In this document: positions 17,359 to 46,540 of the stretch, in pieces
Layout: each line of letters opens with the position of its first letter
Numbering within the stretch: position 1 is the stretch's first letter
Origin: Psammoneis japonica
Taxonomy: Eukaryota
Length of the DNA stretch: 64,000 nucleotides
Assembly (NCBI GenBank): GCA_008632985.1
Contig: QPGO01000064.1
Coordinates: forward strand, 62,001-126,000
Direction: 5' to 3'
Made by a program: the position numbers and the translations under genes
The notes under the pieces: generated by a model
What the model saw: the letters and a program-made list of their open reading frames with translations, nothing else
Told to the model about the DNA's origin: nothing
Databases searched by the model: none

Positions 17359-18066
17359 ATGTCGAGAATCTTAATTTTGTTTCTGGCCTACCTCTCGGTT
17401 GTCGCGGCCGTGGATATTCAACCGGACGCATTTTATCAGAAACTCGTCAACAACGAGCTTGACTTGGTAATTGACGTTCGTACCCAGGGTGAATGGGACT
17501 TGGGTCACATTGAAGGTGCCACCCATGTTGAATCACTTCAGAACGCAGCAACGCTACCAACGAAAATTGACGGGTGTCAAGGAGAATGCCGGGAGATTGT
17601 TGTGTATTGTCGGTCAGGCAATCGTGCGGTTGGGGCCATTCGGAAACTTGTGGATGAATTTGGATTCCAAGGAAACATTTCGAATGGATTGGGCATCAAT
17701 CAGTGGAAGGCTGCTGGATACGAACTGATCAATGGGACGTCAGTGGATCCTCCTTGCGCCGCAAGTGACAGTGCGCCGTGCAATGTGGCTGCTCCTGCAG
17801 GACCGTCTCTTGGTGGAGAAGGCGGTCAACCGTGTCCCAGGAGCAACATTGATCCGTGTGAGGAGGAACAAACACAAACGCCGGGTGGAGGTAGCGAGAC
17901 TGAACAAACACAAACTCCAGGTGGAGGTAGCGAGACAGAACCAACACAACCACCAGTCGGAGGAAGCGAGACGCTAGATGATGGATCTAGTGCAATTTCT
18001 CTAGCTTCAAACTCTGCTCTAGTTCAAGGGCTTGGAGCCGTCGTGATTGCATTGATTTGGCCTTAG
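17359..18066 (+). CDS. Secreted or surface-anchored rhodanese-domain protein (paralogue of 2631-3584)
   Basis: Signal peptide, VIDVRTQGEWDLGHIEGA, VVYCRSGNRA, 3x EQTQTPGGGSET-like repeats, hydrophobic C-terminus. Confidence 0.85.
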   Translation: MSRILILFLAYLSVVAAVDIQPDAFYQKLVNNELDLVIDVRTQGEWDLGHIEGATHVESLQNAATLPTKIDGCQGECREIVVYCRSGNRAVGAIRKLVDEFGFQGNISNGLGINQWKAAGYELINGTSVDPPCAASDSAPCNVAAPAGPSLGGEGGQPCPRSNIDPCEEEQTQTPGGGSETEQTQTPGGGSETEPTQPPVGGSETLDDGSSAISLASNSALVQGLGAVVIALIWP

Positions 18067-18352
18067 AGACTTCAAAATGCCGATAAGATTGTAGAAAGAG
18101 TACATTATAACCTACACTACTTATGACACGTGTTGCATCCCAAGTTCATCCCGCGTTCTGCCTCTCTACTCTAGCTAGAGTCTTTTTTGAATGCTTCTCT
18201 ACTCTAGCCGGCAACGGTAGCCTTTCTCGTCGGTTCGGCGTTCCTGTGGCACTGCGTCTCTGGGCCGTAGGATTCTACGTCAAAATCCTACCAGGGCAAA
18301 CCGTTGAGATAGTTGAGAGATTGAGTTCGACGGGTCACAAGCATCAAGCACC

Positions 18353-19579: not shown

Positions 19580-20411
19580 AAGTGACGGATTATATTATGT
19601 CATGTACGGCTTTTCGTGAAATTGTATTGTTGGCTTCTTCAGATATTCTGTCTCTAGGATCATTTCCCTACTTTCGACGAGTAGGTGTTGCATGGCGATA
19701 TCCGGCGGCAATTCTCTCAAATAATATTGCTCTCCGCTGGACGTCAAACCGATTATTCTGGCATAGTAGTAGCCATCGCATCCTCGTCCAATTTCGACGC
19801 GATGACTGGATTCCAACTCCGTGTCTGTAAGTCCTGTAGCTAGTGATATGTATGCACAGAGGGTTCTGGCAGATGGAACATGATATGTGTCCATTGTTGT
19901 TGCTGCTCTCCTGCATGCGGATTGTGAAAACAATAGACATATCACTCTCAACGTGACCGTGTCAATCGAGAACAAACTTGTACTACTCACCGCAGCCCGC
20001 AACTCCTGACAATACAAACAGACAATCTGACGATCCCACTCTATCTTCAGCGTGCGCGTCTAGATTAGAAGTAGAACTTCTAGAGTAGCTATATACTAGA
20101 GCTACTCTAGAGAGATCCCACTACCGTATGATGATGATGTATGGTGCAAATTGCCGATCATTTTTTTGAAATTTTGCTGTTCGCGTCAACCGAACTCCCC
20201 CGGATCGCTGCTCTCTTTCACGTAAAAGAGTACTGAAATCTACGCGTTTCGGTAACAGTAAACACCACTGCTTACAGCACGAGAACAAAATCATTCTGGA
20301 ATCTCAGAACTCTTTTGTTGACACCATCACCATCACCTCATTCTTATTGCTATCGCATCGCTTCCCTTTGGCGGCCTCCACATTCTCGCTGGCTCTTATC
20401 CTTGTAATACC

Positions 20412-24843: not shown

Positions 24844-25591
24844 CTGCTGTTGCAAGAACTCTTCACTGCCACGGTTATGAAAACATGCATTTGGGTCCAT
24901 TTCTCAGCCCACTAGTGCTAGGTACCTAGAAGAGAGAAGTAGTTTCGCACGCATTGTTGCTGAAGCTAGTTGAGAAATACTTCTCCATTCAACAAGAGTG
25001 GCTAGTTCAAGGTTGTTGAAAAAGTGGGAATGTGTAGTCGTACAAGTACGCTGTGTACTTAGTCGTACCGGTACGCTCTCTAGCAGGGCCTCTAGGCCCT
25101 ACTCTCTCTAAGCCCTAGAGTAGATTCTCAGAGTAGGGCCCTCTGCTCTCTACTAGAGTAGAGAGACGGGTACGGTATTCTCTTGGACCACGAGATGAGA
25201 CGCCCATTTTGAATTTACAAATTTTTTTTACAGCACTGTACTGTAGCACGTGGAGACCGAGACACGAACACTTCACGCACACAGAATAGTTCGGACAAAC
25301 GTAGAAGTACTTACATACGTGACTGCCAGACGTGCTGACGTGGTTCCGCAAGACTAAATCCTTCAAGTATGAAGATTTAGTATATCGCCTGACTTACGCA
25401 TGTGACCGAGCACACACATCATCAAACCATGATGGGCGGCGTGGGAACAGAACAATTCGATCTGCTTGTAAAACCGCTGAAAACTTGTGCTGACGACGTT
25501 CAACCACACAGATATCGCTTACAAGTTGTTGTTGTTGTATCCTATAAGAGTCCTTGCTGGTGATAGATAGGTGGTTTTTCTTATCGTGAAC

Positions 25592-28500
25592 ATGAACGTC
25601 GTGATGACCAAGAGCTTTCTTGACAAAATCACCGACGATGGTGTTTCTTGGAACAAGGAGGAGGACGAGATGGATTATGCTTCCGATTCGTCTGACGATT
25701 CTTCGGACGAAGAAGATGATGACGAGGCCATGGAAGTCGAACAAGAACCTGCTGTTGCTGCCGTAGCTGATGTCAACGAAGCTGAGCCGAACGCTGAAGA
25801 GCAGGCAGTTGAGGCAGAAGAAGAAGAAGAAGAAGAAGCTGATTCTCCCTCCAGCTCGGGTCAACCTACCAAACGAGCTACAATCATGAAGAACTTGCGC
25901 AATCACCCCCGCAGCAAAGAATTGTTGTTTCAGGTGGCTCGGAGCGAAGAGACGCCTCTGACAGATGATGTTGATTGGAAGGAGATTGCATCAAACGTCA
26001 AGACCTACCCGGCTGCGGAGTTGGGCGACAACTGGGGTGCTGTTCTGCTTCAGGGTATTCTTCGAATGAATCCGCCAGTGTTTGTTGTTCAGAAGACAGT
26101 TGCATTGTACCCTAAAGCTTGCCTTGATATGCGGGCATTTTACTCTGCTTGCCAGTTTGGGTACTCAATGAACGACGACGTTGTGGAGCTTGTCATGCAC
26201 CATGCCATGGAGGCAAGGCGAAAAGAGGGCATTCAGTGGGGTATGTTGGCATTCCTAGGAGATGCCAGAGTGCGGACTAGGCATGCAAGAATCTTGCTTA
26301 GAGCTTCACCGACAGCTGTGATTGATCCAGACTATGGCATACATGGGGTGAGCCCGTTGGATCGGATGTTGTCCGGGGCATTGATTCATGGCGATGACAT
26401 TGAATGGGCCGAAAAGCTAAAGCTTGCTCTTTTGACGGCGAAGTTTGGATCTGTTGATTCGGCAGATGCACGAAATGAGGCCGGGGGTAGGGGTTGGTTT
26501 CCCTTCCATACGTTGATTCGACGCTTGATTTCGAAGGACTTTATGGGCGTGAGGTTTGGAAAATATTCCTTCTTGAGAACTCTCTCTGCGTGCCTGCGAG
26601 CAGGTTTCTCCTGTCAAAAAGCGTGCAGTAGAGGCGACCTCCCACTTCATACTGCGCTCAGAAGAGAATGTAAAACAAACCTGGATGTCGTGGGAGAACG
26701 AAAACTCATCAAATTCTTGCTGAGCGCGCACCCTAGCTCTGCTACGATTCCCGATGGCGATGGAGAGCTCCCGATAAGGTTGGCGTTAAAGAATGGCTGG
26801 CTCTGCCATGATCTTCTTGTAGACGCATCTCCACAAACTCTTCATACCAAAGATCATAACGGCAATCTTGCGATTCATGTCGCTTTGAGTGGGAAGTGTC
26901 ACAGCCGCTTCGGTGTCAGCGGGTCGAGGGACGTCATCAAGTATATCCTGCACCAGTACCCACGTGCCGCTTCTATCCCGGATGGTAAGGGCAGGCTTCC
27001 ACTTCACTTGGCGGTCGAGAATGGTTGGCCGTGCCATGACCTCATTGCATCTGCTGCGCCAAAATCACTTGTGACTCGAGACATCACGAACGGGCTCTAC
27101 CCCTTTCAGATTGCAGCCCTTTCTCTCCAAAATAGTGAACCGATTGGTTCTACCATTCTATTTGAGCTGATCAAGTATTGTCCTGCGCTTCTGGGTGTTA
27201 ACAGCTCCGGTTCATTTTCTAAAAATGGGAATCTCAAGCAGGCGCCCATATCAAGCGTTCTCGCAAGTTACTCCGACGAGGGTCTTGTTTTGGATAAAGT
27301 AGCAGTTCATGACGAAGATTCGGATTCTTCATCATCGGATGACGACTCTTCAGACGAGGAAGATGATGAGGGTCAGAAGCAACCGCCACCTACACGTGCA
27401 GCTGCCACAGGACAGGAAGAGTCTGACGAAGAAACGGATCAGATGCCGCACCTTCCAATTAATTCAATCCTCATTATGGAAAACTCCCGTAATCATCCAA
27501 GGAGCGATGAGCTTCTCTTCCGAGTCCTACGAAGTGGAGAGACACCAATGGTTCGCGGAGACATTGACTGGAGTCTGCTCACCTCGCAAATTAAAACCTA
27601 TCCAGCAACAGAACTAGGTGACGCAAGAGGAAGTTTACTATTGCAAAGCATACTTCGTATGGACCCACCGATTTTTGTCGTTCGAAAGGCTGTCGCGGCC
27701 CTTCCAAATGCTTGTTTGGATATGGAAGCATTCTATGCGGCGTGTCAATTTGGATCTCATCGCAACGACGATGTCGTGGAGCTCGTCATGCACCACACAA
27801 TGGAGGAGCGTCGCAAGCAAGGCATTCAATGGGGCATGCTTGCGTTTTTGGGAGACGCAAGAGTGCGCACCCGGCATGCCAAGATACTACTAAAGGCTTC
27901 GCCTACGGCTGTTACTGATCCTAGCCATGGGCTGTATGGTGTAAGTCCGTTGGATCGAATGCTATCAGGAGCACTCATCCACGGCGACGATATTGAATGG
28001 GTGGAAAAGTTGAAAGTTGCGCTGCTCACGGCTAAGTATGGATCAGTCGACGCAGCCGTTGCTCGCGATGACAAGGGTGGTGCTAGCTGGTTTCCTTTCC
28101 ACACATTAGTTCGTCGATTAATTCGTAAAGACTTCCTGGGCGTTCGATTTGGGAAGTTTACATTCCTGAGGACCCTGAATGCGTGTGTTCGGGGTGGCTT
28201 CTCTTGTAAGGATACAGACAGGAAGGGCGACCTTCCTATTCACATTGCTCTTAAAAGAGAATGCAACACGAACCTAGACACAGAGGGGGAAAGAAAACTT
28301 ATCAAGTTCTTGTTGAAAGAGCATCCAAGTTCTGCAACTATTCCGGACGGGGATGGAGAGCTTCCCCTACGCTTGGCGGTTCTAAATGGATGGCCGTGCT
28401 ACGATCTTCTGCTTGACGCAACGCCGCAAACTCTCGACACCAGAGACTCCAATGGGAATCTGGCGATCCACGTCGCGCTAGATGGGAAGTTTCATCCGCG

Positions 28501-28894
28501 ATTTGGTAATTCAGGATCTAGGGACATTGTCAAGTATCTGCTGGACAAAAATCCCGGCTCGGCTGCTATGCCAGACGGCAAAGGCAGGCTTCCGCTTCAT
28601 CTGGCTATGGAGAACGGATGGCCCTGTCATGACCTCATAATGGCGGCAGCACCGCGAGCACTTGAGACTCGAGACGTCACAACCAAGTTGTATCCATTTC
28701 AGATTGCTGCGATTGCGCTTCAGACTCCGAAAGAAGAAGACAAGGAGAAATACTTGCGAGAGCTGAGCATACTGTTTGAATTGATCGGGTATGGCCCTCT
28801 TGCGTTGACGCGTGGTTTAGGCCTGCATATTGATGAGCCAACTCGAAAGAGGAAGCGCACCGCTGATTCTGTCGAGACCGGGAACAAGAAATGA
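25592..28894 (+). CDS. Ankyrin-repeat protein made of two duplicated halves
   Basis: GDLPLHTAL, GNLAIHVAL and GRLPLHLA repeats. Halves begin MKNLRNHPRS (25886) and MENSRNHPRS (27476), each after an acidic tract. C-terminal RKRKR. Start position uncertain. Confidence 0.85.
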   Translation: MNVVMTKSFLDKITDDGVSWNKEEDEMDYASDSSDDSSDEEDDDEAMEVEQEPAVAAVADVNEAEPNAEEQAVEAEEEEEEEADSPSSSGQPTKRATIMKNLRNHPRSKELLFQVARSEETPLTDDVDWKEIASNVKTYPAAELGDNWGAVLLQGILRMNPPVFVVQKTVALYPKACLDMRAFYSACQFGYSMNDDVVELVMHHAMEARRKEGIQWGMLAFLGDARVRTRHARILLRASPTAVIDPDYGIHGVSPLDRMLSGALIHGDDIEWAEKLKLALLTAKFGSVDSADARNEAGGRGWFPFHTLIRRLISKDFMGVRFGKYSFLRTLSACLRAGFSCQKACSRGDLPLHTALRRECKTNLDVVGERKLIKFLLSAHPSSATIPDGDGELPIRLALKNGWLCHDLLVDASPQTLHTKDHNGNLAIHVALSGKCHSRFGVSGSRDVIKYILHQYPRAASIPDGKGRLPLHLAVENGWPCHDLIASAAPKSLVTRDITNGLYPFQIAALSLQNSEPIGSTILFELIKYCPALLGVNSSGSFSKNGNLKQAPISSVLASYSDEGLVLDKVAVHDEDSDSSSSDDDSSDEEDDEGQKQPPPTRAAATGQEESDEETDQMPHLPINSILIMENSRNHPRSDELLFRVLRSGETPMVRGDIDWSLLTSQIKTYPATELGDARGSLLLQSILRMDPPIFVVRKAVAALPNACLDMEAFYAACQFGSHRNDDVVELVMHHTMEERRKQGIQWGMLAFLGDARVRTRHAKILLKASPTAVTDPSHGLYGVSPLDRMLSGALIHGDDIEWVEKLKVALLTAKYGSVDAAVARDDKGGASWFPFHTLVRRLIRKDFLGVRFGKFTFLRTLNACVRGGFSCKDTDRKGDLPIHIALKRECNTNLDTEGERKLIKFLLKEHPSSATIPDGDGELPLRLAVLNGWPCYDLLLDATPQTLDTRDSNGNLAIHVALDGKFHPRFGNSGSRDIVKYLLDKNPGSAAMPDGKGRLPLHLAMENGWPCHDLIMAAAPRALETRDVTTKLYPFQIAAIALQTPKEEDKEKYLRELSILFELIGYGPLALTRGLGLHIDEPTRKRKRTADSVETGNKK

Positions 28895-30822: not shown

Positions 30823-33177
30823 TTACGCCCAGGGATTAGGACCACTCGCATCGCGTAGATGATTAACTTCAATCTTGTGTGATTTCAAACGATCGCGGAT
30901 AGTGGAGGCTAAAGCGATCTGCCGGGACGTTCGATCCGCGGGAGGGTCCTCTTTGTTGGATGCCTGCTCTTCCTCTTCCTCTTTGCCATCATCGGCACCG
31001 AGCGATTCCAGGATATCATCGACGGCCTTGTGTAACCTAGAAACGTCCGACGATTCTTCGTCATCGTCCGCAGAGAGAGCGAGAAATGCCCGAAGAAAGC
31101 CAATTAATGCCTGCGTCACGGCCATTTCGTCCAGCAGCGGCTTAAGTTCTTCTTCCACATTGTACACTGGTAGCCGCTTGAAACGAGCAGCATCGGTCCA
31201 GAAGAAGACTGCTGCCTTGCGGAGCTTTGTCGCGGGGAGAAGGAATGTCGCCTTGTAGTCCTCTTGATCAATCTTATTAAATCCATCCTCATCCATGGAA
31301 GTTTTCAACAAAGACTCATAAGCCTCTTCTAGAGCGCTCAAATACTTTCTCGCATGTTTCGGATCACCACCTCTCACAAAAGGTGGGATTAACGCCACGA
31401 TCATTGCGGTTAGCACCCCAGTCAGAGTTGCAACAACACGATTCGCGGTGAGATCATTTTTAGTTCCTTTGCCTGTGTACGTTTCCATTGCAATCAATGC
31501 ATTCGTCACTGCAAAAAAGCCCCAGGCATGCGTGCAATTGTAGCCAGCTGCCCCGAGGCGAGAAGGGATGCCCGGCAAGAGATCAAAATTAGCAGCCAAA
31601 AGATTCGTCACGGTCAACCAAGCTACGAGACCATATGGATTGATGGACGCATCATCGTCATAACTCCAACTGCAGACAATGATCCCCAGCCACGCAATAA
31701 AACCACCAAACGCCGTTCCAAGCATGCGCTGAACACCCTTTTTACACGTCCCCTCCAGTGTAACAGACCATGAAAAAGCAAATGTGAGCAGCTCCCACCC
31801 GGAAAAGACATTTCCAACAAATCCGTCATCCGGACGAATAGCGTAATTTGCGTAGGCCTTCCAGTAGACTCGCATAATGAACAAAACGGTAAATCCAACT
31901 ACCAACTTGAGGCCCCAAAGGAAACTCCACCAGTCCCAACTCTTGGGCTTCAAGACAAGTGTCGAAGCGGATGCCACGCGCTCAAGGGGAAGCAACGTAA
32001 GCAAAAAGATCTTGGTCCAGGCCGTGCCAATGTGCTTCATTCCCTGTAGGCAGGACTCTGGAGGCTTGGGGAGGTGCAGATCTTTCAACCACACAATCGT
32101 AGCGTCTCTCACCTGGACGGCTTGCTTGTGCACAAACCAAGTTTCATCGAGACGAGCACTCTCATGGTGTTGATGCTCATCGCCGTTTTGTCCTTCCACC
32201 GACTCTGATGGTGTGGTATCCTCCAATGTCTTGATACTATCTGGGTCATTGGAAGATAATGCAGAGGCACAACCGTTGACGATATCCAGTGTCTCTTTCA
32301 GGGCGGCCTTCTCCGGTTCCGACAACTCAACGTCCTTCTTCCAAGTGGAAGCCAAGAGAGAGTATAGCATCAATGCATCCGTCTGTACCATGAGTTCTTT
32401 GAAGGACGGCACGAGGCTCTCGGCGGGAGCGCGAAAAGGACGCGGTTCAAATAAAATCATGTTGGCAATGGTCCCTTCTGCAATGATGGTCCATATATGG
32501 ATAAACTTTCCCTGCACCTGTTGTAGCTTGCCCCCAATAAGGGCAGCTACCAGATGAAGCGCACCGGGCAACACCCCGGCGGAGAGCGTGTTTCGGGCCG
32601 TCCGAATAGGAGGTAAAAGAACGACAAAAGCGAGCAAGGCGACGCCCCAGCAAACCGCAATCAAAAAGTTGCGATAAAAGGCGTTGGGGTTGGTGGTGCC
32701 TCGTTCCGTCCAGAGGTCTCCAATAGCAGACAAACCGTCATCACCTTGTCTTTCCTCTTCTTCGACTGCTTCAAAGTGCGACAAGGCCAACATGGCAGCG
32801 ATTCCAATCTGAACGTTGGCCAGCGCTACAGTCTTGTCGTAATGCGGACCAAAGAAGAGACTCACCATGAGCAAACAAAAGATGGCAAAGATTGCCACAA
32901 AGAGTCCGTCCGAGACTGTCGCCGCTGCGAGAAGCATAGTTGAATACACCGAAGCCAATACAAAGGCAACAATAACTGAGGGCAGGAGGCCGGGGATCCG
33001 AAAGAACAGACTCGGCAGGCTAAATGACAGGGCCGTTCCGACCAACGTCACAAAGAAGGAAAACGCAGGTGGGACGACCTTGGGGATCTCAGCAACGCCG
33101 AGACAGTAGCTTCCCAGCAGACAGAGGCCCAAGCGGGCAAGAGATTCCGCTTTGATGCGATCCGGTAGCCATTTCAT
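30823..33177 (-). CDS. Aromatic acid exporter/FUSC/ALMT-like membrane transporter
   Basis: 784 aa with two multi-TM blocks. EGTCKKGVQRMLGTAFGG and NRVVATLTGV motifs. Confidence 0.75.
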   Translation of the reverse strand: MKWLPDRIKAESLARLGLCLLGSYCLGVAEIPKVVPPAFSFFVTLVGTALSFSLPSLFFRIPGLLPSVIVAFVLASVYSTMLLAAATVSDGLFVAIFAIFCLLMVSLFFGPHYDKTVALANVQIGIAAMLALSHFEAVEEEERQGDDGLSAIGDLWTERGTTNPNAFYRNFLIAVCWGVALLAFVVLLPPIRTARNTLSAGVLPGALHLVAALIGGKLQQVQGKFIHIWTIIAEGTIANMILFEPRPFRAPAESLVPSFKELMVQTDALMLYSLLASTWKKDVELSEPEKAALKETLDIVNGCASALSSNDPDSIKTLEDTTPSESVEGQNGDEHQHHESARLDETWFVHKQAVQVRDATIVWLKDLHLPKPPESCLQGMKHIGTAWTKIFLLTLLPLERVASASTLVLKPKSWDWWSFLWGLKLVVGFTVLFIMRVYWKAYANYAIRPDDGFVGNVFSGWELLTFAFSWSVTLEGTCKKGVQRMLGTAFGGFIAWLGIIVCSWSYDDDASINPYGLVAWLTVTNLLAANFDLLPGIPSRLGAAGYNCTHAWGFFAVTNALIAMETYTGKGTKNDLTANRVVATLTGVLTAMIVALIPPFVRGGDPKHARKYLSALEEAYESLLKTSMDEDGFNKIDQEDYKATFLLPATKLRKAAVFFWTDAARFKRLPVYNVEEELKPLLDEMAVTQALIGFLRAFLALSADDDEESSDVSRLHKAVDDILESLGADDGKEEEEEQASNKEDPPADRTSRQIALASTIRDRLKSHKIEVNHLRDASGPNPWA

Positions 33178-34899
33178 TTTTTGTTTTTGTTGTCTTGTGA
33201 CAAAGTATGGCGGATTGGGATATTAATAGATTGATTCTCCCTCCTGTTCTCTCCCAAAAGATTTCGGGAGTGTTCTCTGAGTTCTTGATGTTTTTTTGAT
33301 TTTTGATGTCCCCGCGCGCCAGCCTGATGAACGAGCGCGGTCTTTGATGCCGACATGACGTCACAAGCATTCTTCATCAGCTGCATCTATCAGGCACCAA
33401 GTCGAAGTGAGCCAAAGCAACCAGTCTCTGCCACAAGATGTCGGCATGCACTGTCCCTTGCACGATGAGCGATCCTACAACATGTCATGCACAACAACAG
33501 ACTGCTTTTCCAAGAGCTGTGGTGCTTCATGGAAGCAAAGGGGTTGCCTTGAGAGAAAAAATTGTCTTGTTGTGTGCCACCTTTTTGTGATGGCGGCTCC
33601 AAGAAGAGCTTTCTCACACAGCTCGGAAAATGAGGTTCTGCTGCTGTTTGGAAATTTTTGAGGGGATTTGCAGCACAGTCAGAGCTGCCTCCTCTCCCTT
33701 CCTTTTGGTTTTCCCAAACACCACAGTTTGCACCTGTGCCAAAAGCACAGCTGCTGCCAAAGATGACCTGGCGCTGACGCCATGGCTCTGGTTTTGTGAA
33801 AAGTTTGTTGTGTGCCATGACCTTGCAAAAAATGAGAAGTGCTTCTTGAGCATCTCTGGATGAACCAGGTGCAGGCCACATTTCAGCACTCTGCAATGCC
33901 CCCCACCCAGGGAGGCTGGGAACTCCTTGCGCATCACATGGCCTTGGCATTTTTGTTTTGTCTGCTGCCGCGCACCTCTTTCGCAGCTGCCCAAACTCTC
34001 CATCAACCCCGTGCAATGCAATGTCATGCAACACATCTCTTTTGAAGCATGGCTCCATGGGACAATGCCACCTGCACATCTTGCAAAACAGATTCTCCAT
34101 TGTTGCTGCTGCAACCCAAAACTTGCATTGACAGCAGAGCTCTTTCAAGAGGCTTTGTCGCCTGTCACTGGTGCCACACCCCCCACTTTGGCAAGCTGCC
34201 AAGAGACATGCAGAAAATTTTTCTGTCATCTTGGTGTGAGTCACATGTCACTTGAAACCCTCTGAGGCCAGGCCACTCATTGCAGTGATTGGGAAAAATC
34301 TTGTGCTGTCACAGCTCCAAGATTTTGGCAGCAACACTCAAGTGTTGTCAGTGCTGCTGCTGCATTGTCATTCCTGGGAGCCAATTTCAGCACCATGTCA
34401 ACCAATGGCAAGGACTTGCTCAATTTTTCCACTTCCTTTTTGACATCAGCACAAGCAAGCTTTTCCTCATCAGCTTCTTTCACACCAGGCCATGTTGTTG
34501 CAAGTGGCTGTGGCCCAGGACACCACCACCAGCACGAGCAACACAACCCCCCCAAGCCAACTTTTGCTTTTCTGGCATCATCACAGCGAAGTTGTTGGAG
34601 CAGCTCCTGTTGCACCAGGGTTGTGTTCTGCTGATGCAGCAGGCCTTCTCTCTCCCACATCTGTGGCACAACGCTGGTGAGAAAGTTGACTTTCTCTCCC
34701 AGTGCCAAGGCTGACTCAGCCTTTTCCTTGTCAAGATTGAGCTCTCAAAGTTCAGTGTCTGTGGACATGAGCTGCTCAGCTTGCTGTTGGACAGTGTTTC
34801 TGCAACAACCACCTGTTTTTGTCCATGCATGGAACACATGCCTTCCTCATGTGGCACATGCAGCAGGCTCTTGCAGCTGAGCCAAATGCCTTGCAACTT

Positions 34900-37100
34900 G
34901 GTTTGCTCAACATGCCAGCGCAGCTCACATCTTCCTTTGTGCAGCTTTGAGCACAAAAAATGGTTTGCTGTGCTCTTTTGTTGATGTCCAGTGCTGACCC
35001 AGTCAGAGATGTCACCTCCAACCTTGTGCTAATTTGGCATGTTCACCAGCTTTGTGCTGAGCACATTTGGCAACTTGGTGTCCATCCAGCAGAATGACTT
35101 GTTGTTGATGCCAAACCTGTCACAAAGCTGGGGTGGATGGCCATGGCAACCCACCTGGCGTCCAGTGATGTTGTCTTTGGCAGCTCAGCTGGCACTGAAG
35201 ATTTGCTGTGTTGGCAGCTTTGGCAACTCAATCCACAGCTGAGAACTTTGTTGCCTCTGTCCATGATGCCAGCTGATGAATTGAGTTTGTTGCAAATTGT
35301 TTTCATGTTGAGATGAGTTGACATCTTGTCATCCAAAATGGCAAAGAATTCCTCCACCCCCACACACAACGATGAAAAAGGGAGGCTGTGTCAGCACGTG
35401 GATTCAGAGGCAAATCAATGACAATGCAGCCACTTGCAAGTGTGCAACGCAGCCATGAATTTGCCGAGGTGGTTTTTTTGTGCAAAACAGAGGCAACTTC
35501 ATGCTTGTGTTGTTTGCAAGTGCCTTGCAAAGCATGTCGTCTGGTCAGTCTTTGTGAACCTGCATCACAATGAGGAGTCCTTTTCAATTTTTGGCACAGA
35601 TGCAAAGTCAACTTGGAGAGGGCAATGATGTGCACTTTCTTTGCTCCCTCTAATGTGTTTTTGTGGAGTTGACTGCATCCCTTGACAAAGTTTGTGGCAA
35701 CATGAAAATTGTCCTCCATTTCCTCAAGAGGACAAGATGACCATTGCAGTTGGTCAAAAGAGTGGTGTTGATGGGAACAGTCTTGCATTGTTGGCTGGTT
35801 GTTGCAGCTCCCTTCTCAATGCTGTTGGCTGTTGTCTGACTCATCACCAATGCAAGCAGCAGGTTCATCCAGCAGGTCCTCCATCAGCAAAGCACTGGGG
35901 GTGCCTTGAGAATCATGTCATTTGCATGTCATCTGTCATTGCAGGTTGGTGGGTCTGACCAAGAGCTGCTGTGGTGGTTTGAGGACTCCTGAGGCTGTTT
36001 CACATTGGAGCACACACTGAGAAATGCCAGTTGCTCCTGCTGCTTTGGCCATCTGCCCAGCTGTCTCCTCACTTCAACATGTCTTGCAAATGAAGAATGA
36101 AGGAACCAGGCAACAAATTTGATGTGCTGATGTTCCTGAATCAGCGCTGTCCTCACAAACAAATGAGTGATCTTGAGGCACAACTGCTCCAAATCTTTGA
36201 CAACCTTGGTCCTGCACTTTTTGTCCTTCAAGGCTTCCCAAAAGACATGGTCAGCAACAGCCCCTCCAAGCCTCCCCTGCAATGTGGCAAGGAATCTCTG
36301 ATGGCTGTGCCATCTTTTTCAAAATGTTCCACATCAACCTTGTTGCAAAAGCATGGCAGCAGATTTTTCACAAAAGAGTGAAAGGGGCTGACAGTGGAGT
36401 GAAGATGCTTTCTCTTGGAGCCAACTCTTGCTGTTGATGCTGAACAAGAGTGAACATCACAGTGAGATTCAAACCACAGTGGCAACTGCGTGCATTAAAA
36501 ACACACACAAAATGACAAAACAAAAATGCTCACATCATTGCATTGTTGTGTGAACAACTTTTCAGCGCATGCAAGGAAAACAATCATGTGCAGAGGCTCA
36601 GCAACACAAGCTTCAGCTGAGCGGACCATTTGTCAATGCAGCTGGTTGACACACCCATCAGTGCTTCAGCAGCTGGGATGCCCATTGAAGCGTCAGTTGT
36701 CCATTGAGCTGATGCTCTTCCTTTGTCCATGGTTGGCATGTCTTTCAAACACAGGCTGTTGAGATGTTGACTGCCGCCAAAGCCAGCTGTTTCAAACAAC
36801 AGCACAAAGATGACAATGAAAATGGGGCTTCCCCAGCACAGCCAGAGCACAGATGTCACAACCAGTGTGTTCAGCAAAGCAATGACAGCAGTGCAAAGTT
36901 GGAGCCAAAGCTGTTTGTTGCAGCTGCAAATGGGCATGACATGTGACAACTGGCATTTGTTGTTGAACACATGGAAATGAGCACATTTGTCGATGAAGAA
37001 GTTGAGAGGAGTGAAAACTTGCCCATTTGGAGCTGCTGCATGCATTTCATTGCACAAGAAGAAAAAAATGGCTCAGTTGGTTTGTGCTGTTTGCACTGGA
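34900..37100 (-). mobile_element. Degenerate Plavaka-like transposase relic
   Basis: QVFTPLNFFIDK (like PIIxFIDKT), RDSLPHCRGG and FHVATNFVKGCSQLHKNT (like FGxxxNFDxGxxExxHK) occur in the expected order. Confidence 0.45.
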
Positions 37101-37479
37101 TTGCACGCACTTGCACGTCAGAAAATTCAGATGGTTGCAGGGGACTGCACATGGCTCATGGCTCTGCATGAATTTTGAAATTTCAAACAAAGCGTGCAGT
37201 GCAGCAGGATGATGAAAATGGCAAAGATGCCACACATGAATGGGCATCAAACAAAGACACAAACCACAGCCAAATCAATGAGTGATGCAGCATGGCTCAG
37301 AAGCCAACAGAACAAAGTCTGTCATTGTTGCTGCTCCTCCTTTAATTGCACAAATTCAGGTTCACCAGTTGTGCACAATGCTGGCAAAGCTGTTGCCAGC
37401 GAACTGATTCAAGAAGATGCAAGCTTTGCTGAAAAGTTGGAGACACGCAGCAACTCCTCCACTGCAAGAGGGAAAGACA

Positions 37480-37850
37480 AGAAGCTGAAGATGCACCCAG
37501 CAAGACTCTGCCCCTCTTTGTGGGAGCTCCATGGCAGCTGCAAGTGCCTGCATGGGAAGACACCAGCTCAGTGTCTTGCTCCACAGAAGATGGCAGTGAT
37601 CATGGACATGGGCTGGAGCCCATCATTGTCCCAGATCATGCAATGGATCTGGGTGCATTGTGTGCAGCAGGTGCTGCCAAGGCAAGTGTCACACAGCAGA
37701 CAGGAGCCAAGGAAAAGGGCAGCCATGGAGGATGGTCACCAGAGGGGCTTGCAAGGTGCCATGATTTGGTGGACCAGGAGATCAAGGAAAAACCAAGTGT
37801 CAAAAGAAGCACAAAGACAAAACAGAGCACTCAGGATGCTTGAATTGTGA
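37480..37850 (+). mobile_element. Relic of TE-associated accessory ORF
   Basis: HGGWSPEGLARCHDLVDQ resembles the YxGWSxEGxxRYNxL motif, with Tyr replaced by His/Cys. Confidence 0.4.
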
Positions 37851-38586
37851 GGAAGCTGTCAAGGCGCAAGTGGATGACAACAGGAAGCTTGAGAGGAGGA
37901 AAGCTGTTGGCAAACTGTTGGATGCCATCAACTTGACAATCGACACCCCTGTCAGCAATCTTGAGATGGAGGAAGTCCAGCTGAGTCATTTCATCACTGT
38001 TTGAATGGTGCACAAAGCTTGTGTGTTGCAGCCAAAAAAAGTTGCCAAGCAAAAATGGATGGATGTTTTGGAAGAAAACATCCAGATTTCACCCGCTGAC
38101 ATTGCAGTCAAAATTGCCAAACATTTTAAAACAAGTTTTGAAGCATGTGGGCAGTTTCACCAACTGACAAGCTTCAATTTTTTTTGCAGCTGCAGTTGGT
38201 GCAGTGGTGTTTTGCAGCAAAATGGATGATCAGAGTTGCATGATGCCGTGACTCTGGGGGCGGCTGGAAAGTGCTTGTGTGAGGCCAGTTTTCTCTTGAG
38301 CCGGTGGCTGCCAACAACCACTCTGAGAGCACCCAGCAGCTTTGAACTCAGCAGCACATGTTGTGACATCACAAACAAAGTCAAAGAAAAGAAAAGAAAA
38401 GAGAGGAGGGAGAGAGAGTTTGCCATTGGGGCCACTTTTGCAGCAGCAAAGTCCAAAGAAGTTGTCAAAAAGAGCCACACATTGCTGTGGTGACTTGCAC
38501 AAAAAACACACGGGGGCAGTCTGCACAGATTCCATGCATGGCCAAGTGTGTGAAGTTGTTTCCAAATGCCTTGTGTGGTTGTTGTT

Positions 38587-40380
38587 GGAGCATTGCCATT
38601 TTGTTGACCAAGCCCACATTGGCTCAAGCACTCACAGACTTGCCACATGGGTTGCAATCACATGTCTCATGCTGTCACCGGTGCTGCCACTTTGCCTCTG
38701 TGTTGGCCTGGCATGCGGAAGCCAAATGGTGAGAACACAAACCAGTCTTCCTCAGAATTTGAGGAGGCAAGTGCTCAGCATCATGCACACTTGTCAGCAA
38801 TCTTTTTGCTGCAAAAGTTGTCTGGTGTTTGTCCTTCCAAAAACATCCTTGAACCTCAATGTTCCAACACACTCCTTCACATGAGCCATTGACAGGTTGG
38901 CCTTGTGTGCTCCAGTCAAAGGAGGACAACAGCTGGAAACCCTGCCACCCAGTGCCATGCCACTCAGTGTGACTCTGGACCCTTGGCTGACCTTGTCCAA
39001 CTCCACTTTTAAATGGCCATCATTGCTGTTGAGCAAAGGACAGTCATTCGTTGCATGCCAAACTTTGTCACATTTCCAGCACTCAAGCTGACTCTTCTGT
39101 TGCTGTGGCTGCAAAGCTTGCACCCTCAGGTTTCTTGTTGGTCGTGTGCATGTCCAACACCTGTGGCACCTCCTTGGCCAACTTGGGACAATTGTCAACC
39201 CCCAATGCAAGCTGCCAATGCAGGTCTTTCAAGATGTGCCAACATTTCTTTTGGCAAGTGCCCTCCACTGGCATCACAGCCAACAAGTTGTCTCTCATTC
39301 TTCTGGGTGTCATTGGCATCCGCGCTGAACCCAGCAGCTTCTTTCTTGGCAATTTCTTCCAGGATGGTCCTGCCACAGGACCTTCTTGCCATCTCAACAA
39401 ACTGCAACAGTGTCAAAATGCCTCTCTCTTGTCTTGACAAATGAGCGCCAGCTGCTTCCATGCCTTCATGGCCTGAGTGTGCTGGCTGGTGGAGTCTGGT
39501 GGCACTTGCATTCAAAAATGAGATCAGCCCCAGAATCTCCAACAGCGCTGCCATGTCAAACTCCTTTGCAACCCATGCAAACTCTGTTGCTCCTTCAACT
39601 TTGTGATGGGCTGCCTTCACACACTGCCCTGCAGCTGTTTTGAGCACTGTTGCCTTCTGTGCCTTGTAGATTCTGCCCTCTTCCACACAGCGACTGCATT
39701 GTTTCCCCGAGACTGCTTTGTGCTTCTCCAGCACAGATGCACCAGACAGATGTTCCAGCTCCTCTGGCTTGCTTTCCTGCCTCAAAGATGCTGGCTCCTG
39801 CATCTCTGGCCCAGACATTCTTCCAAGGTGCTCACTTGTCTTTTTTGTGATTTTTGTGCTTCCACCCCAACTCAGTGATGGCATCATGGTGCAACCACTC
39901 TCCTTGCAGTCTTTCACGCTTCTTCAAGGCTCTCCAGAGATTGTTTCTTTGCTTGCGGCTCCCTGAGCCAGGGTGACAAAATCTCATGAAGCCACCCCTT
40001 TGACTGGAGAACAGCAAATCAACAAACCACTCTTGTCAGCCCAGCAAGCTCACATGCCACAATCACTTGCACCAACCAGGTCTTAGACTCCTCTCAACTT
40101 CCCAGCCTTCCCTTGGGATTTCTCTCAACTTCCCAGACCTTGTGCCTTTTGGCTTCTCTGTGCTGGAGCTTTGCCATTTTGCTGACCAAGCCTGCACTGG
40201 TTTGAGGAGCCATCCCAGACTCATCACATGGACTGCACAAACACACATCCTGTGCTGTCACAGGTGCTGTCACTGTGCCTCTGTGGCTCCATGCCAACCT
40301 GGTGCAGAAACTGAAAAGTGAGGACAAACCAATCTTCCTTGGAATTTGAGGGTGCAAGTGGTGCTCAACATCATCCACCC
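38587..40380 (-). mobile_element. Degenerate gag-only LTR-like element B
   Basis: Direct repeats 38587-38790 and 40165-40380. Zinc knuckle CWKCDKVWHATNDC and GVDNCPK (like GxDxYPK). Collinear with element A. Confidence 0.65.
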
Positions 40381-40779
40381 TCACAAAATGAATGATGTTC
40401 TTCTGCCATTTTGAAGAGCCTTTTCAAGTTCTGGCAGCACCGCAGCCAGATGGCAAAGATTGTGACCCCGATTCCACACCTGCCACACACCGCCGCTGAA
40501 ACAATGTGCGCAACCAAGAACAACAAAATGCTCACACACAGTGTGTCTGTTGTGTTGTTGCTCCTGTGTCCATTGTCGTAAAACTGAGAGAAGCTGCACT
40601 GTTCCATTCACACGGGCCTGCCACAAGGCTGTGCAGGCACCCCTGCCAGGTTTCAGAACGCAGTGCATCCTCTGACTGTCTCAGAAATCTGAGGTTGAGT
40701 CTTGCCTTGCAATGGTTGGGTTCCCTGAGACAGCACCATTGTCTCCTCTTCAGGGCAGGGTCAGTGGTTGCTCCACAGC

Positions 40780-42890
40780 TGGCAACTGTGTCAATCGTCC
40801 AATTGCTCAAATGATGGCTGATGGCACAGTTGTGGGAAGAGGTTTGGGTGCAAAAAATCTGCATTGAAACCTGCACTGCCATCAACATTTTGTCAATCAA
40901 AGAAAGGCTCAATGCTGTGCAGAATCAACTTCAAATGTTGTGCAATGACCAAAAGCAAGAAATCGCAAATCAGATCATTGATCAGGTTAATCAACGAAGG
41001 GGAAGATTTCTTCTCACAAAGGCAATTTCAAGCTAAAGTGACAAGTGTCCATGTCACATGAGGAGGTGGACAAGCGCACAGCTCTGAAGAAGTGCTTGCA
41101 CTGACTTTGAGAAAAAAAGAAAGCCACAAAGGCAACTGCATCTCTTGTTGAACAGGTGCATCATCTTTGTCAACAGCAGAATCTTTTCAGACAAACAGCA
41201 GAATCTTTTCAGACAACATGATGTCTTGTTTGGCCCCATGTCCCCAGCGCATGACCACATCAGAAATTGTTGCTTTTGTGTGCCAGTCAAGAGGAGAGGG
41301 GAAGAATGTGTGCAGGCTCAAACAACAAAGGCAAAGAAGGAAATTGCAGCGCAAGTGCTTGACAAGGTTGTGTTGAGGGGTGGGTGATTTCTTGGCAAGA
41401 ACCCATCCAAGAGTGGCAGTGGTTGCTTTGCTTGGGAGGAACTGGGTGTGAGCAAAGCTCTTCAGAAGTGCTTCAATGCTCTCTGAGAAAAGAGAAAATC
41501 AACTCCAAACCACGACATTGCATGTGCTCAGGTGTGTTGGATTTCAATCATCATCTCTCTCCCACAAAAGCATCTGTGAATGAGGTTCAATTGATTCAAG
41601 ACACAGAAGGAATTTTGCTTTGTCCTGTGTGGCAGCAAGCCCAAGTGCACAAGCCAACTGTTTCTCCCTTTGGTGCGTCAATCAGTGCGCTTCAGTCAGC
41701 CCAGCAACCAACTGATTTTTGCATTGTGTCAGAAGACCTGCAAAAGGCCTGCATTCTCCATCAGGAAAACATGCTGATGGAAGAAGGTGCGGCTGGATTT
41801 TGCTCAATTCCATGCAAAGTGTCCCGGAACACCCTGCGACACCTCTGGAGGAACAAGAAAGGGAAAGACAAATGCTTTTGGAAGACAAGAAACTGCCAGT
41901 CCTGTCTGACCCAGTTGGCAAGAAGTTGCATGGCAAGGAGCAAATGAAACAGAACATGGGAGCACTGTCAGGTTGATGAAACATGAGATCAACCTGATGC
42001 CCATGCCCAGAAACATGCTCTTCTTGAAGCACAATTGAAGTGTCACCCTGAAGAGTTCAGTGATTCAAGGTTGAAGGCTTTCCTTTGCCACTCTGATCAG
42101 AATCCAAAGGTCAACAAAACAGAAATGACAGATGTTGCAAATTTTTTCCACCTTTGTCCTCCATCTAAAGAGCGCGCCATGTCTGTTCCCTTTCATGATC
42201 GCAGCCTGCCACAGAAAGGTTGGCATGTGTTGTTGGGAGTGCCGCAAATGAGCACTTGGGTCCAACAAGTGCTGCCTGCCCATGGCCATTGATGGCACCT
42301 TGTGTGATGATGTGGTTGCTCTCCGTGCTGGCTTTGCCACCATGTGCTTCCACACACCATGATGGCTCTGGAAGGCAGATGACATGGGTCAACATGTTGT
42401 GGCACACAGGGATTCGACACGTGAATGAAAGCCTGGCAAGGTTGCTTTTCACGTGTGGCTTGTGCGTCCAAAGAAAAGCACTGTTCTGACATTTTGTGTG
42501 GCTTCCTTTCAATTGAGATTCAAGCAATGTGGCATCTTTGCGAGATTCTAATTCCGCAAGATGCAGATGGCAGGGGAGTGATCAGAATCCCGCACAGTGC
42601 AAAAATGCAACAATGTTGCACATGTGTCCCAAGCAACTCTGTCCTTTTCTGGAGTTCACCAGAGATTGTTGGCCAATCAAAGTGAGCGTGGATCATGTCT
42701 TGAGCATGTCTCAAGAGGTGACGAGCTCACAGCAGAGCTTGCCAAGTGTGGAATGCTTCGGGACATGCTGCCAACTGAAGTGGGAGGAACAGTGGAAGTG
42801 AGGCACAATGAGTGGATTGCTGCCAGGCAAAAGATGGAAAGTGAAGAGCTGCACACACGCCATGTCCGTGGAGGACAGCCATGAGTCAAT
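40780..42890 (+). pseudogene. Hypermutated paralogous copy of the DUF6824/CRAL-TRIO gene at 43693-46038
   Basis: Collinear homology, e.g. 42262 ccaacaagtgctgcctgcccatg vs 45351 ccaacaagtactacctgcccatg. Contains stops, frameshifts and a mutated splice donor. 3' flank homology extends to ~43160. Confidence 0.92.
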
Positions 42891-43692
42891 GGGGCCCTTT
42901 TTTAGAGAGCTTGTCACACTGGCTGGACACTGTGTGCCAGGTGCCGGATGTCACTCTTAGAGTCATGCTTGACCCAAAATGGACAGTGTCCTGGGACATT
43001 GACAAAGTCCTCAGGGCAGCTCAAGGTTGTGGCATGGATGCAGTGCCGCTTGCTCCTCCAGCACTCAGAGCAGTTTCCTGCTCTCCACACGGCAGTCCCA
43101 GCCAGCTGGACAGGCTGGGCCCCACAGTGTGTTTTAAGAGGGTGCCAGAGCATTGCCGCATCCCTTGAGGGCTGCTCTCTAGTAGAGTGCCCTCTGACTC
43201 TACTCTACATGCTCTAGCTAGAGTAGAGAGTGTAGAGGGCACCTTTAGAGCGGGGACCAATTACAGTGTTAACATTCGCAACGTGCTGTGACAGGGCCCT
43301 GAGTGATGACGTGTAGCATGACGCCATGTGCAATCATTGACTCGCGCGCGCTGCGCAAGCAAGAACACAACACATGCATCGAGTTCTTCAACATCACAGC
43401 ACACACCACACACGGAACGCGAACGCCACGGTCTGTATGGTATGTATGGTGTTGCAGCACCTGCTGATAGATCGCATTAGCCAGTTTCTTTGTCGCTTGG
43501 CTAACTTTCGGTACTCAACATACACATACAGTGAAGGTGAAAGGTGGGGAACTGTGCATTGGTTTCCATTTAGTACGAGGCGCGAAACTTGCTGTTAGAA
43601 TCGCAACACTCTTTTGCTTGTTGCAATACTCATTATCAAAGAACATCCTCAGTGCTATCCTACTGTAACTCTCTGAATGTTTGCCGAAGAAA

Positions 43693-46038
43693 ATGACATC
43701 GGCTCTGCAACGCGGAATTGAAGATTGTTCAACCACTCTCCCTACCTGTGCAAATCGCTCCATCGTCGAAGTTTCGTCTAATGACGTAGTTATGGGAAGA
43801 GGTTCGGGGGCAAATAATCGACGTGGAAACCGGTACTTTCGTCAGCTTGTCGATCAAAGAAAAGCTGAATACTCGGTCGCAACAACAAAGGAGAGGAAGA
43901 GAGAAATCGCGAGAGAAATTATACGCCAGGTTCATAGGCGAGGAGGAAGGTTCCTTCTAGTAAAGGAAACTCCGGACGGAAGTGGCGAGGGCGCACATTA
44001 CGAGGATGTGGACGAGCTAACAGCTATGAAGAAGTGCCTTCATGCACTCAGAGAAAAAAAGAAAGCCAAGGCTGCACCTTTCGTAGAACCGGTATGTTCG
44101 TTGACTATGTTTGTTTATTTGTTGAGTTTCGTCGTTTTAAGGTGATGAACATATGCTCTCTCAACTTTCGTTTCAGGCATCTGACGTTTGTCAATCGGTC
44201 ACCGAAGGCTTTGCGATTTCTCTAATGAATCATTGTGGCCGTGAAGAGCAGAATCTATTCCGACCGGATGATGTCTTGTTTGGCAGCGTGTCCCTGACTC
44301 ACGACTATATCGGAAATCGTCGTTTTCGTTGGCTTGTCGAAATGCGACAAGACGAATACTTGCAGGCACAAACAAAGAAAGAGAAGAAAGACATTGCAAC
44401 GCAACTGCTAAACGAAGTCTTGTCGAAGGGCGGACGATTTCTTTGCGAGAACCCATCCAAGTTAGCCCTTGGTTGCTTTGCTTATGATGAATTGGGTGCC
44501 CGTAGAGCTCTTCAAAAGTGTCATCAGGCTCTCCGAGAAAAGAAAAGGTCATTTTCTAACCACCACGATATACCTTGTGTTATTGAGAAGGTATGTTGAT
44601 TTTCAGTGGGAATACCTTTTCACCTCGCATACTGTTTTTCAACAATCACCTTGTTTGTTCGAGTAGCCCACAAGCGCGCATGGCGATGATGTTCAATTGA
44701 GTAATGACACGGGAGGGACGCCACCTTATCCTTTGGGGCAAAGCTATGCTCCAGGCGTTTCGCCCTTCGTGTTGTCGGATAAGTCTCAGTCAGGCGAGCC
44801 ACCGGCTGATCTGGGCCTGGCGACTAACTGGCGAAACACCGATGTTCTCAATCAGAAGGACATATTGACAGAGAATGAGGCAGCATGGTTTGTACTGAGT
44901 TCCTTGCAAAGTGTTTCGAAACGCCCGGTGATACCTCCGGAGGAACAAGAAAGGGAAAGACAAATGTTGACAGAAGACGAGAAATTGCTAGTCTTGTCTG
45001 ATCTAGTTGGTAAGAAGCTCACATTGAGTCCCAACGTACATATCAGACAGAAACATGACCGCGCGTTCCTCTTGATGAAGCGTGAGATCGATCATATACC
45101 CGTTGCTCAGAAGAGTGCTCTTCTCGATGCACAATCGAAGTGCAGCCCCGAAGAGTTCAGCGATTCGAGGTTAAAGGCGTTTCTTCGCTTTTCCGATTGG
45201 GATCCAAAGGTGAAAGAACTTCTGCAACCTATGTCTATGGGTGCGTCTTGGCTCACTGTACTAGTGCTAACTATTATGTCTTTCATGCTTTACAGGCCGC
45301 CGCGGAAAGGTTGGCATATTATTGGGAGTGCCGCCGACGAGTTTTCGGATCCAACAAGTACTACCTGCCCATGACCATTGATGGCGCGTTGCGAGATGAT
45401 ATGGTTGCTCTTGATACTGGCTTCGCCACTATCCTTCCTCACCGTGATGGTTCTGGGCGGCAAATATTATGGGCGAACACGTTACGTCATACTGGTATTG
45501 GATATACAAACGAAAGCCTGGTACGTGTGTTGTTTGGCATGCCGCTTGATAATGTCGATTTGACTCAAAAATGATGTGACCGTCCTTCCCAACTCAGATT
45601 CGAGCTGTGTGGTATCTTCATGAGGTTTTGATGCGGCATGACACACATGGTAGGGGTGTCATCCGGATCCCGCAGTTTAGAAATGCGACCATGTTGCATG
45701 TGTATCCCGAATATATCTGTCCTTTTCTAGAGTTTACGAGGGATTGCTGGCCAATCAAAGTGAATGCCGATCATATATTGAACATGTCCCAAGAGATACG
45801 AGACTGGTTGGAGCCGTTCCTTCTTGCAGCTTCGGGCAAGCATGTGCGATTACGTTCCTTAAATCATAACGTCCCAGAGGACGAGCTCATATCAGAGCTT
45901 GCCAAGTATGGAATACTGCGAGACATGCTACCAACTGATGTTGGCGGAACGGTGAAGGTGAATCATACTGAGTGGATTGCTGCCAGACTAAAAATTGAAA
46001 GGGAAGAGCCATATGTCTACCACTTCTATGAAGAATGA
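43693..46038 (+). CDS. Two DUF6824 domains plus CRAL-TRIO-like domain; exons 43693-44091, 44177-44590, 44667-45209, 45296-45520, 45598-46038
   Basis: DVVMGRG...GNRYFR...GGRFL...KKCLHALRE pattern twice, AFLRFSDWDPKAAAERLAYYW...VFG, LPTDVGGT. Four in-phase GT-AG introns. Confidence 0.88.
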
Positions 46039-46269
46039 CTCCGTGGCTTTCGGGGACGAAGTCAGAAAAGGTCAGAAGAAGCAAAGTCATTCTAGGATGC
46101 CTTCCGTGTTTTGGTGTCAGCTGGCGGAATAGATTGCTCTCGCTTGACATCGTAGGATGACACACATGTTAGGTAATCATGGGTACATCCACTCCGGCCT
46201 CCAGACCTGGTTGAATAAAGATCGCACAGCATGGACTTCATGCCTGCTTGGAGCTGTAGCTTCGCTTCG

Positions 46270-46540
46270 AGATAGACTCTCTCTCTAGTAGAGAGAGAGA
46301 GTAGTAGGAATAGATTGAGGCTTTTTGGCCGCGTCATCACGTCATCACTACTACGGTAGAAAAGAGAGAATAGCTACTCTAGCTCTAGGAGTATATTTTT
46401 TGAATATTTGTCTACTCTACTAGCTACTCTCTAGCTAGCCTCTCTAGCTAGCCTCTCTAGCTCTACTCTACTCTCTCTACTCTCTAGCTACTACTACTAG
46501 TAGAGTAGAGAGTACCGGTAGGGCCCTCTCTAGAGAGAGA
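46270..46540. repeat. CTAG/CTAC/GTAG-rich palindromic low-complexity tract
   Basis: ctctctctctagtagagagagag and ctagctactctctagctagcctctctagctag. Similar tracts at 18160-18210, 20059-20115, 25070-25170 and 43175-43250. Confidence 0.8.

Follow-up and report, generated by a model that had tools for sequence, protein, structure and literature searches.

To our knowledge, no genome defence that mutates DNA in place has been established outside the fungal kingdom. The process of repeat-induced point mutation (RIP), known from Neurospora and other fungi, acts as C to T change mainly at CpA, creating TpA and lowering G+C, and it needs a duplication and hits both copies. Here we describe a footprint of the opposite kind in a 64,000-nucleotide stretch of the stramenopile alga Psammoneis japonica (assembly GCA_008632985.1, contig QPGO01000064.1, positions 62,001 to 126,000 of the forward strand; hereafter the window), a gene-dense piece of nuclear DNA with few short GT..AG introns and a G+C near 0.48. 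The window holds four sharply bounded intergenic domains (blocks A to D; Table 1) with saturating transitions at both self-complementary pyrimidine-purine steps, TA changing to TG or CA (A:T to G:C) and CG changing to TG or CA (C:G to T:A), on both strands equally and with G+C unchanged. The right-hand end of block D is a dead copy of a gene encoding DUF6824, a domain associated with diatoms, standing next to an intact paralogue (the live gene).

The closest described system is that of the chlorarachniophyte Bigelowiella natans, for which a preprint on mutation-accumulation lines reports that TpA mutates to TpG/CpA in two integrated viral regions only, with a rate of about 6e-7 per site per generation (Mettrop et al., bioRxiv 2026, 10.64898/2026.01.13.699255). 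The integrated DNA is described as giant-virus and virophage, with the larger region, a giant-virus insert, being transcriptionally silent, and the genome as a whole as containing 124 TpA-poor, CpA- and TpG-rich clusters, many of them unannotatable (10.64898/2026.01.13.699255). The authors propose DNA adenine deamination with ADAT2 as the candidate enzyme, amphioxus and trypanosome ADAT2 having been reported to act on DNA, on both A and C (as cited in 10.64898/2026.01.13.699255). The blocks described here are alike in showing A:T to G:C transitions at TpA, giving TpG or CpA by strand, and in being confined to discrete regions with the remainder of the sequence normal. They differ in lineage, B. 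natans being a rhizarian, and in extent, the viral region there being half depleted (Rho TpA 0.45) and the blocks here saturated. They differ too in the co-depletion of CG, CpG going unmentioned in the text of that preprint; in the target, which is viral or transposon DNA there and here old repeats plus a host gene copy; and in the kind of evidence, rates having been measured there and a footprint alone being recorded here. The footprint has so far been described once, in that unrelated alga, and the present locus is best filed as a saturated, CpG-coupled variant that has engulfed a host gene. No earlier report of this signature in diatoms or other stramenopiles was found in the literature searched, and mutation accumulation in Phaeodactylum is reported to have CG, CC and TG as mutagenic contexts, with TpA not listed among them in the part of that study cited here (PMC6604790).

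Over the 18.8 kb scored in the four blocks, 28 TA remain against 731 expected (3.8%) and 166 CG against 1003 expected (16.5%), the ratio of observed to expected TA being 0.01-0.07 and those of TG and CA 1.7-2.1. The part of block D upstream of the dead gene (33477-40710) retains nine TA (ratio 0.02), with CG at 0.14, TG at 1.89 and CA at 1.82. G+C is 0.485 in the blocks and 0.479 elsewhere, and TC is at 0.7-1.2, like elsewhere. Runs free of TA reach 1597 bp inside the blocks, the longest outside being a 381-bp patch and, after it, a run of 197 bp. The block edges are sharp to about 150 bp and lie about 100-520 bp from the flanking genes, the gap between block D and the start of the upstream gene being about 300 bp and that between the block and the live gene's ATG about 520 bp. 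Introns, spacers and flanking genes are all spared, as are a gene with a block on either side and a young transposon inserted among the blocks. The live-gene introns have TA at 0.72 and CG at 0.85, and 8.6 kb of spacers between active open reading frames (ORFs) have 0.73 and 0.91, while a 376-amino-acid ORF (7853-8983, minus strand) forms an island of normal composition between blocks A and B. Its match to the FkbM methyltransferase domain is weak and falls below the threshold (E = 0.0014, 19 bits, cut-off 22.7).

The initial annotation of this locus had taken the dead copy and its neighbour for a before-and-after pair in which TA and CG were converted on both strands. The alignment itself stands: counting columns in aligned blocks of at least 12, dead 40711-42971 and live 43676-46095 share 1407 of 1947 columns (72.3%), with 315 transitions and 225 transversions. 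So does the conversion, as none of the 79 TA of the live gene is kept, 25 having become TG, 25 CA and 29 other dinucleotides, and 10 of the 112 CG are kept, with 33 now CA and 29 TG, TG and CA being about equally frequent outcomes. The 14 other dinucleotides are kept at 984 of 1724 positions (57%; Fisher p = 1e-28 against the loss of TA, p = 2e-25 against that of CG). Expressed as rates per site symmetrised over both strands, A to G occurs at 59 of 154 sites preceded by T (0.38), the rate following any other base being 0.09-0.14 (p = 7e-14), and C to T before G at 70 of 223 (0.31) as against 0.07-0.16 otherwise (p = 3e-10), with transitions at TA standing well above those at other A contexts. 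The effects on the gene first noted were likewise recovered, with none of 19 aligned tyrosine codons kept (9 now cysteine, 6 histidine) and the intron-4 donor changed from GTACGT to GCAAGG. In addition the dead copy carries 19 frame-shifting gaps within exons and seven in-frame stops, CGA having become TGA in three of these, and its DUF6824 match falls to 20.4 bits, under the Pfam cut-off of 27. The live gene is spared in composition, with TA at 0.61 and CG at 1.04 (dead copy 0.04 and 0.24).

Polymerase-eta mutagenesis at WA, as in phase 2 of somatic hypermutation, also turns A to G where T or A stands 5' of it in an A:T pair and was considered as a candidate. It predicts that AA should be raised too, and A to G after A is found at 42 of 296 sites (0.14) as against 58 of 549 after C or G (0.09-0.12; p = 0.15), far from the 0.38 seen at TA. 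Polymerase eta is rejected on this ground, with the initial annotation having set a rise at TA only as the deaminase-like outcome.

To speak of a before-and-after pair was nevertheless an overstatement, the two genes being old paralogues and not a recent duplicate with its mutated twin. They differ by 11.6% transversions as well as by the frame-shifting gaps, and a table of read/contig differences revealed a third, expressed paralogue, of which 121 and 50 nucleotides could be rebuilt from that table for comparison. Over the 121 nucleotides at 40983-41103, the dead copy shows 19 differences from the third paralogue and about 45 from the live gene, having lost all three TA and six of the eight CG of the third paralogue. 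The live neighbour as progenitor of the dead copy is ruled out by this greater nearness together with the 225 transversions. Over the 50 nucleotides the dead copy is not nearer the third paralogue, with 10 differences between live and dead, 16 between dead and third and 11 between live and third; since the two stretches disagree, the paralogue tree may be mosaic. Introns 3 and 4 remain in the dead copy, which makes this old paralogue a DNA-level duplicate and not a retrocopy. It lies inside a rewritten domain and was rewritten along with it.

The direction of change was read from protein residues in informative columns, the homologues being too distant for a DNA outgroup. The C-terminal part of the live protein has 262 distant relatives (HMMER, E up to 1e-3; best 45% identical), while none of 118 candidates from longer proteins scored as a homologue of exon 5. 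Thirty distant homologues of exon 5 support the live residue at TA or CG codons, namely R(CGA) by 14:0, Y(TAT) by 18:0 and 21:1, I(ATA) by 26:3 and R(CGG) by 8:0. On this protein-level polarisation, the homologues side with the live TA and CG residues and not with the TG and CA of the dead copy, showing TA and CG to be the ancestral state and the changes to be derived in the dead copy. At several other differing positions it is the dead copy that the homologues support (D 11:3, K 15:3, E 17:6 and E 12:6), so the live gene has changed as well.

The repeats within the blocks tell of the same changes. Directly upstream of the dead gene, and again in block B, lies an element of roughly 1.8 kb bounded by terminal direct repeats of about 220-240 bp; it is multi-copy in the genome, with a word depth of up to 710 against about 61 in its flanks. 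The core of the block B copy is 67.5% identical to 38876-39923, rising to 86% in a purine/pyrimidine alphabet. Repeat copies inside the blocks, compared over 1328 aligned dinucleotide pairs, show 55 CA-versus-TG double differences, the next class numbering 7, and the terminal-repeat pairs within each element, which were identical at insertion if they are long terminal repeats, show 12 and 7 such pairs. CA-versus-TG differences between copies mean that each was rewritten from an ancestral TA or CG; the rewriting happened in situ, once the copies had been inserted or duplicated, and separately in each of them.

The description of block D as a transposable-element block holds for this multi-copy element and its terminal direct repeats; no transposon or viral protein domain was found in the block DNA. 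There were no Pfam matches for 12 long block ORFs, and none at the curated cut-off for 147 block ORFs of at least 70 amino acids, the five matches below it (E 4e-4 to 9e-3) being to unrelated families. In block D, frames read through with X at stops gave no match, either in the three plus frames (33477-40711) or in the three minus frames (33477-38584). A Pfam search of such DNA is nearly blind, as the control DUF6824 domain scores 20 bits in the dead copy and 79 and 62 in the live protein. When the sequence was compared with itself in the purine/pyrimidine alphabet, no additional concealed paralogue came to light in the blocks.

A multi-copy element and a gene duplicate are just what a homology-triggered process like RIP would strike, mutating the dead gene and the repeats through their being duplicated, and diatom DNMT4 enzymes are reported to group with fungal RID (PMC9998398). 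The footprint also shares with RIP irreversible in-situ transitions on both strands, stops in genes and a dinucleotide signature. The signature is nevertheless the reverse of that of RIP, TA being destroyed and not created, CA and TG enriched and G+C the same. The paralogues are spared, the adjacent one being unmutated and the third keeping its TA and CG in the 121 nucleotides compared, which bears out the initial claim that, unlike in RIP, only one copy was hit. Moreover, block DNA at 33000-38888 is at the single-copy word depth of about 61 and yet mutated throughout, and the blocks fill whole intergenic domains with sharp edges, not repeat limits. The sparing of the live and third paralogues and the mutation of single-copy DNA show that the process is not homology-driven; a RIP-like origin is accordingly very improbable in our view, and targeting would follow the domain rather than sequence homology.

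Could the footprint have arisen other than by mutation in place? Miscalls at modified bases, if resolved at random, would also give TG and CA at 1:1 and CA-versus-TG differences between copies, a genome-wide bias might be masked by selection, and foreign DNA might be intrinsically poor in TA and CG, the block DNA being without an identifying protein domain. Contigs from one sequencing run (X1), built from exact 31-letter words at a depth of about 61, reproduce block D with seven substitutions inside it and eight across 14 kb, all of them transitions, and a few indels. Exact-word contigs at that depth require accurate reads, which speaks for the sequence of block D as real and against miscalls. 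The undepleted introns and spacers mean that this is not a genome-wide bias hidden by selection, and the host-derived dead gene and the terminal-repeat pairs record change in situ from TA and CG, which argues against a foreign origin. To an artefact or a non-mutational origin of any of these kinds we attach hardly any credence. Of these substitutions two lie at CG and none at TA, and all of them together are too few to show ongoing activity. At 41558-41561, inside the dead copy, the X1 contig has 47 letters against two in the window, an indel between reconstructions or haplotypes.

The two steps have not decayed alike. CG is graded, at 0.05-0.14 in the block cores, 0.24 in the dead copy and 0.39-0.57 in the margins and the 381-bp patch, with TA gone in all of them. 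The completeness of TA loss beside the graded loss of CG points to two processes at different rates, and the TA process is the faster or farther-reaching. The margins and the dead gene have the look of having been added later, in keeping with late incorporation or with spread outwards. The initial annotation had proposed spreading from silenced chromatin into the host gene; in keeping with this, the dead copy is outermost in a continuous block and retains more CG than the rest of it (0.24 vs 0.14), the other margins being likewise TA-free and CG-retaining. This fits spreading without proving it; the gene may have been killed by spreading or may have died first and been silenced afterwards.

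This difference in rate also bears on a passive regional effect, whereby silent chromatin lacking a repair pathway would slowly accumulate ordinary lesions at TA and methylated CG with no targeted enzyme. CG decay is commonplace in methylated DNA, the blocks are old, the terminal repeats differing by 5-9% transversions, and the young transposon embedded in them is unmutated, all as slow accumulation would have it. Against this, TA is more fully lost than CG, and we know of no spontaneous lesion that makes TpA more mutable than methylated CpG. Furthermore, the B. natans signature is described as coming in bursts, 1000-fold above background and in some lines only (10.64898/2026.01.13.699255). 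A purely passive origin is therefore held to be quite improbable.

The explanation that we rate best, with about an even chance of being right, is domain-restricted TpA hypermutation joined to CpG decay in silent chromatin, and not RIP, polymerase eta or a genome-wide bias. On this explanation the domains would be silenced chromatin around old repeats, and the CG part would be ordinary deamination of 5-methylcytosine in CG-methylated silent DNA. Methylation of the blocks is suggested by analogy with diatom transposons, which are reported to be CG-methylated (PMC9998398). Deamination of 5-methylcytosine at CpG in methylated transposons, known from vertebrates and plants and, as TpCpG hypermutation, from basidiomycetes (PMC3318451), has the same outcome in silent repeats, CG becoming TG or CA on both strands. 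It accounts for the CG half only, TA being untouched in those systems. The TA part would be enzyme-driven, chromatin-targeted TpA editing of the B. natans kind. The chemistry that we favour is adenine deamination, in which an ADAT2/TadA-type polynucleotide deaminase would convert A to inosine, then read as G. The natural substrates of ADAT2 and TadA would fit in carrying U before the edited A; ADAT2/ADAT3, TadA and ADAR resemble the present case in that U or T precedes the edited A and differ in that their normal substrates are RNA. The link to such a deaminase here is by analogy, and ADAT2/TadA is to be taken as a candidate.

Several points weigh against this explanation. A to G on one strand is T to C on the other, so that with a strand-symmetric footprint a thymine modification fits equally. 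The same domain-targeted process might then have its primary lesion on thymine, a TpA-directed silencing mark such as 5-hydroxymethyluracil (5hmU), written by a TET/JBP enzyme and mispaired or badly repaired, giving T to C at TpA. We know of no such thymine modification in stramenopiles. In dinoflagellates, which share with stramenopiles the SAR supergroup (stramenopiles, alveolates and Rhizaria), 5hmU is described as preferentially replacing thymine in TA and TC, with TET/JBP homologues as its writers and a tie to the silencing of transposons (PMC11572971). The likeness lies in the TpA preference, the tie to transposon silencing and the lineage; the difference is that this is modification and not mutation, a mutational footprint not being reported with dinoflagellate 5hmU in the part of that source drawn on here (PMC11572971), and that it also prefers TC, which is undepleted in the blocks. 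A primary lesion on thymine is for these reasons unlikely, if not to be dismissed. The residual 28 TA lie almost all in TTAA (10), TTAG (8) and CTAA (5), a context effect that this explanation does not predict, residual CG being richest in GCGC. Outcomes at neighbouring sites show no strand-coordinated runs (runs test, z = -0.4 to -0.6), which lends nothing to a single-strand deaminase acting processively, though runs of this kind might be masked by saturation. The X1 run may be the sample behind the assembly and hence not independent of it, and the Pfam scans gave no transposon or viral protein domain for the block DNA. Finally, the 911-bp transposon between blocks B and C is TA-rich and unmutated, with 71 TA, TA at 0.83, CG at 1.22 and a G+C of about 0.40, so that the process may be past or extinct, episodic, slow relative to insertion, or selective. 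This transposon offers a natural clock or reporter of whether the process is still active.

Domain-restricted TpA hypermutation with CpG decay, if it is the right explanation, has here run its TpA signature to completion in a second major algal lineage, on ordinary repeats and a host gene and coupled to CpG loss. More broadly, and only as a tentative and somewhat doubtful proposal, TpA-directed rewriting of silent DNA could be an old, homology-independent genome defence of the SAR supergroup, in which a base modification on TpA, either adenine deamination or a thymine mark related to 5hmU, turns silencing into permanent decay beside CpG methylation and can swallow neighbouring host genes. The window would then be the saturated end state and the B. 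natans viral regions an early state of one process. If general, it would explain the unannotatable "dark" intergenic DNA of such genomes, and the absence of TA and CG with a doubling of TG and CA would serve as a mark for mapping long-term silent chromatin without epigenomic data. It would also mean that silencing can cost a host its neighbouring genes, and would point to a natural A-to-G (or T-to-C) DNA editing activity with a two-base context.

Table 1. Coordinates of the rewritten blocks, the dead and live DUF6824 genes and associated features in the window (TA, CG, TG and CA values are ratios of observed to expected).
Feature	Position	Strand	Remarks
Block A	3750-7599		Margin 3750-4800: TA 0.07, CG 0.53; core 4801-7500: TA 0.03, CG 0.05
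Block B	9287-13983		Margin 9290-9750: TA 0.0, CG 0.39; core: TA 0.01, CG 0.10
Block C	14895-17100		Continuous with block B until young insertion arrived
Block D	33477-43170		9.7 kb, TA and CG nearly erased; dead copy is right-hand 2.2 kb
Dead copy of DUF6824/CRAL-TRIO-like gene	40711-42971	+	Pseudogene with intron remnants; TA 0.04, CG 0.24
Boundary/promoter region of live gene	43171-43692		Normal composition from about 43180, CTAG-rich cluster first
Intact paralogue (live gene)	43693-46038	+	5 exons, 673 amino acids, two DUF6824 domains
Live-gene exons	43693-44091, 44177-44590, 44667-45209, 45296-45520, 45598-46038	+	Open frame, GT..AG introns, all phase 0
About 1.8-kb element, block D	38583-40384	+	Terminal direct repeats 38583-38794 and 40161-40384; directly upstream of dead gene
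Second copy of about 1.8-kb element, block B	11533-13299	+	Terminal repeats 11533-11771 and 13070-13299
Young non-autonomous DNA transposon	13984-14894		Perfect 21-bp terminal inverted repeats, GTTT on both sides
Small extra patch	1640-2020		381-bp TA-free run, CG 0.57, TG and CA 1.61

The live gene is supported both by its domains and by spliced contigs. Its protein has two DUF6824 domains (Pfam PF20710) at 79.0 and 62.0 bits against a gathering cut-off of 27. Exact splicing of introns 1, 2 and 4 is seen in contigs from a second run (X2), contig record 11 joining the first two of these and intron 4 being spanned by a GT..AG joint at 45519/45597, so that the gene model is right and the gene transcribed. 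This run is labelled "DNA?" and was treated as transcript-derived because its contigs are spliced at the live-gene introns; it gives no cover over block D, which was not taken as evidence of silence.

A number of minor features accompany the blocks. Low-complexity clusters rich in CTAG (TCTAG/TAGAG units) occur in spacers at 17974-18204, 20060-20107, 24912-25153, 43179-43218 and 46379-46530, that at 43179-43218 coinciding with the right edge of block D and a further one following closely on the live gene; they could act as promoters, terminators or boundary elements. Rhodanese-domain paralogues at 2532-3584 and 17188-18066, about 71% identical over 360 nucleotides, flank blocks A to C, and the region may stem from an old tandem duplication. 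The small patch at 1640-2020 lies upstream of the first rhodanese gene and may be a small relic of the same process that rewrote the blocks. Elsewhere, a 1107-amino-acid ankyrin-repeat ORF contains an internal duplication of about 1.2 kb (25883-27114 and 27473-28707, about 70% identity), and, in line with the stramenopile and probably diatom origin that DUF6824 also suggests, the named relatives of a kinase encoded in the window are all stramenopile, the best named being from the diatom Cylindrotheca closterium at 37% and the best overall at 54%.

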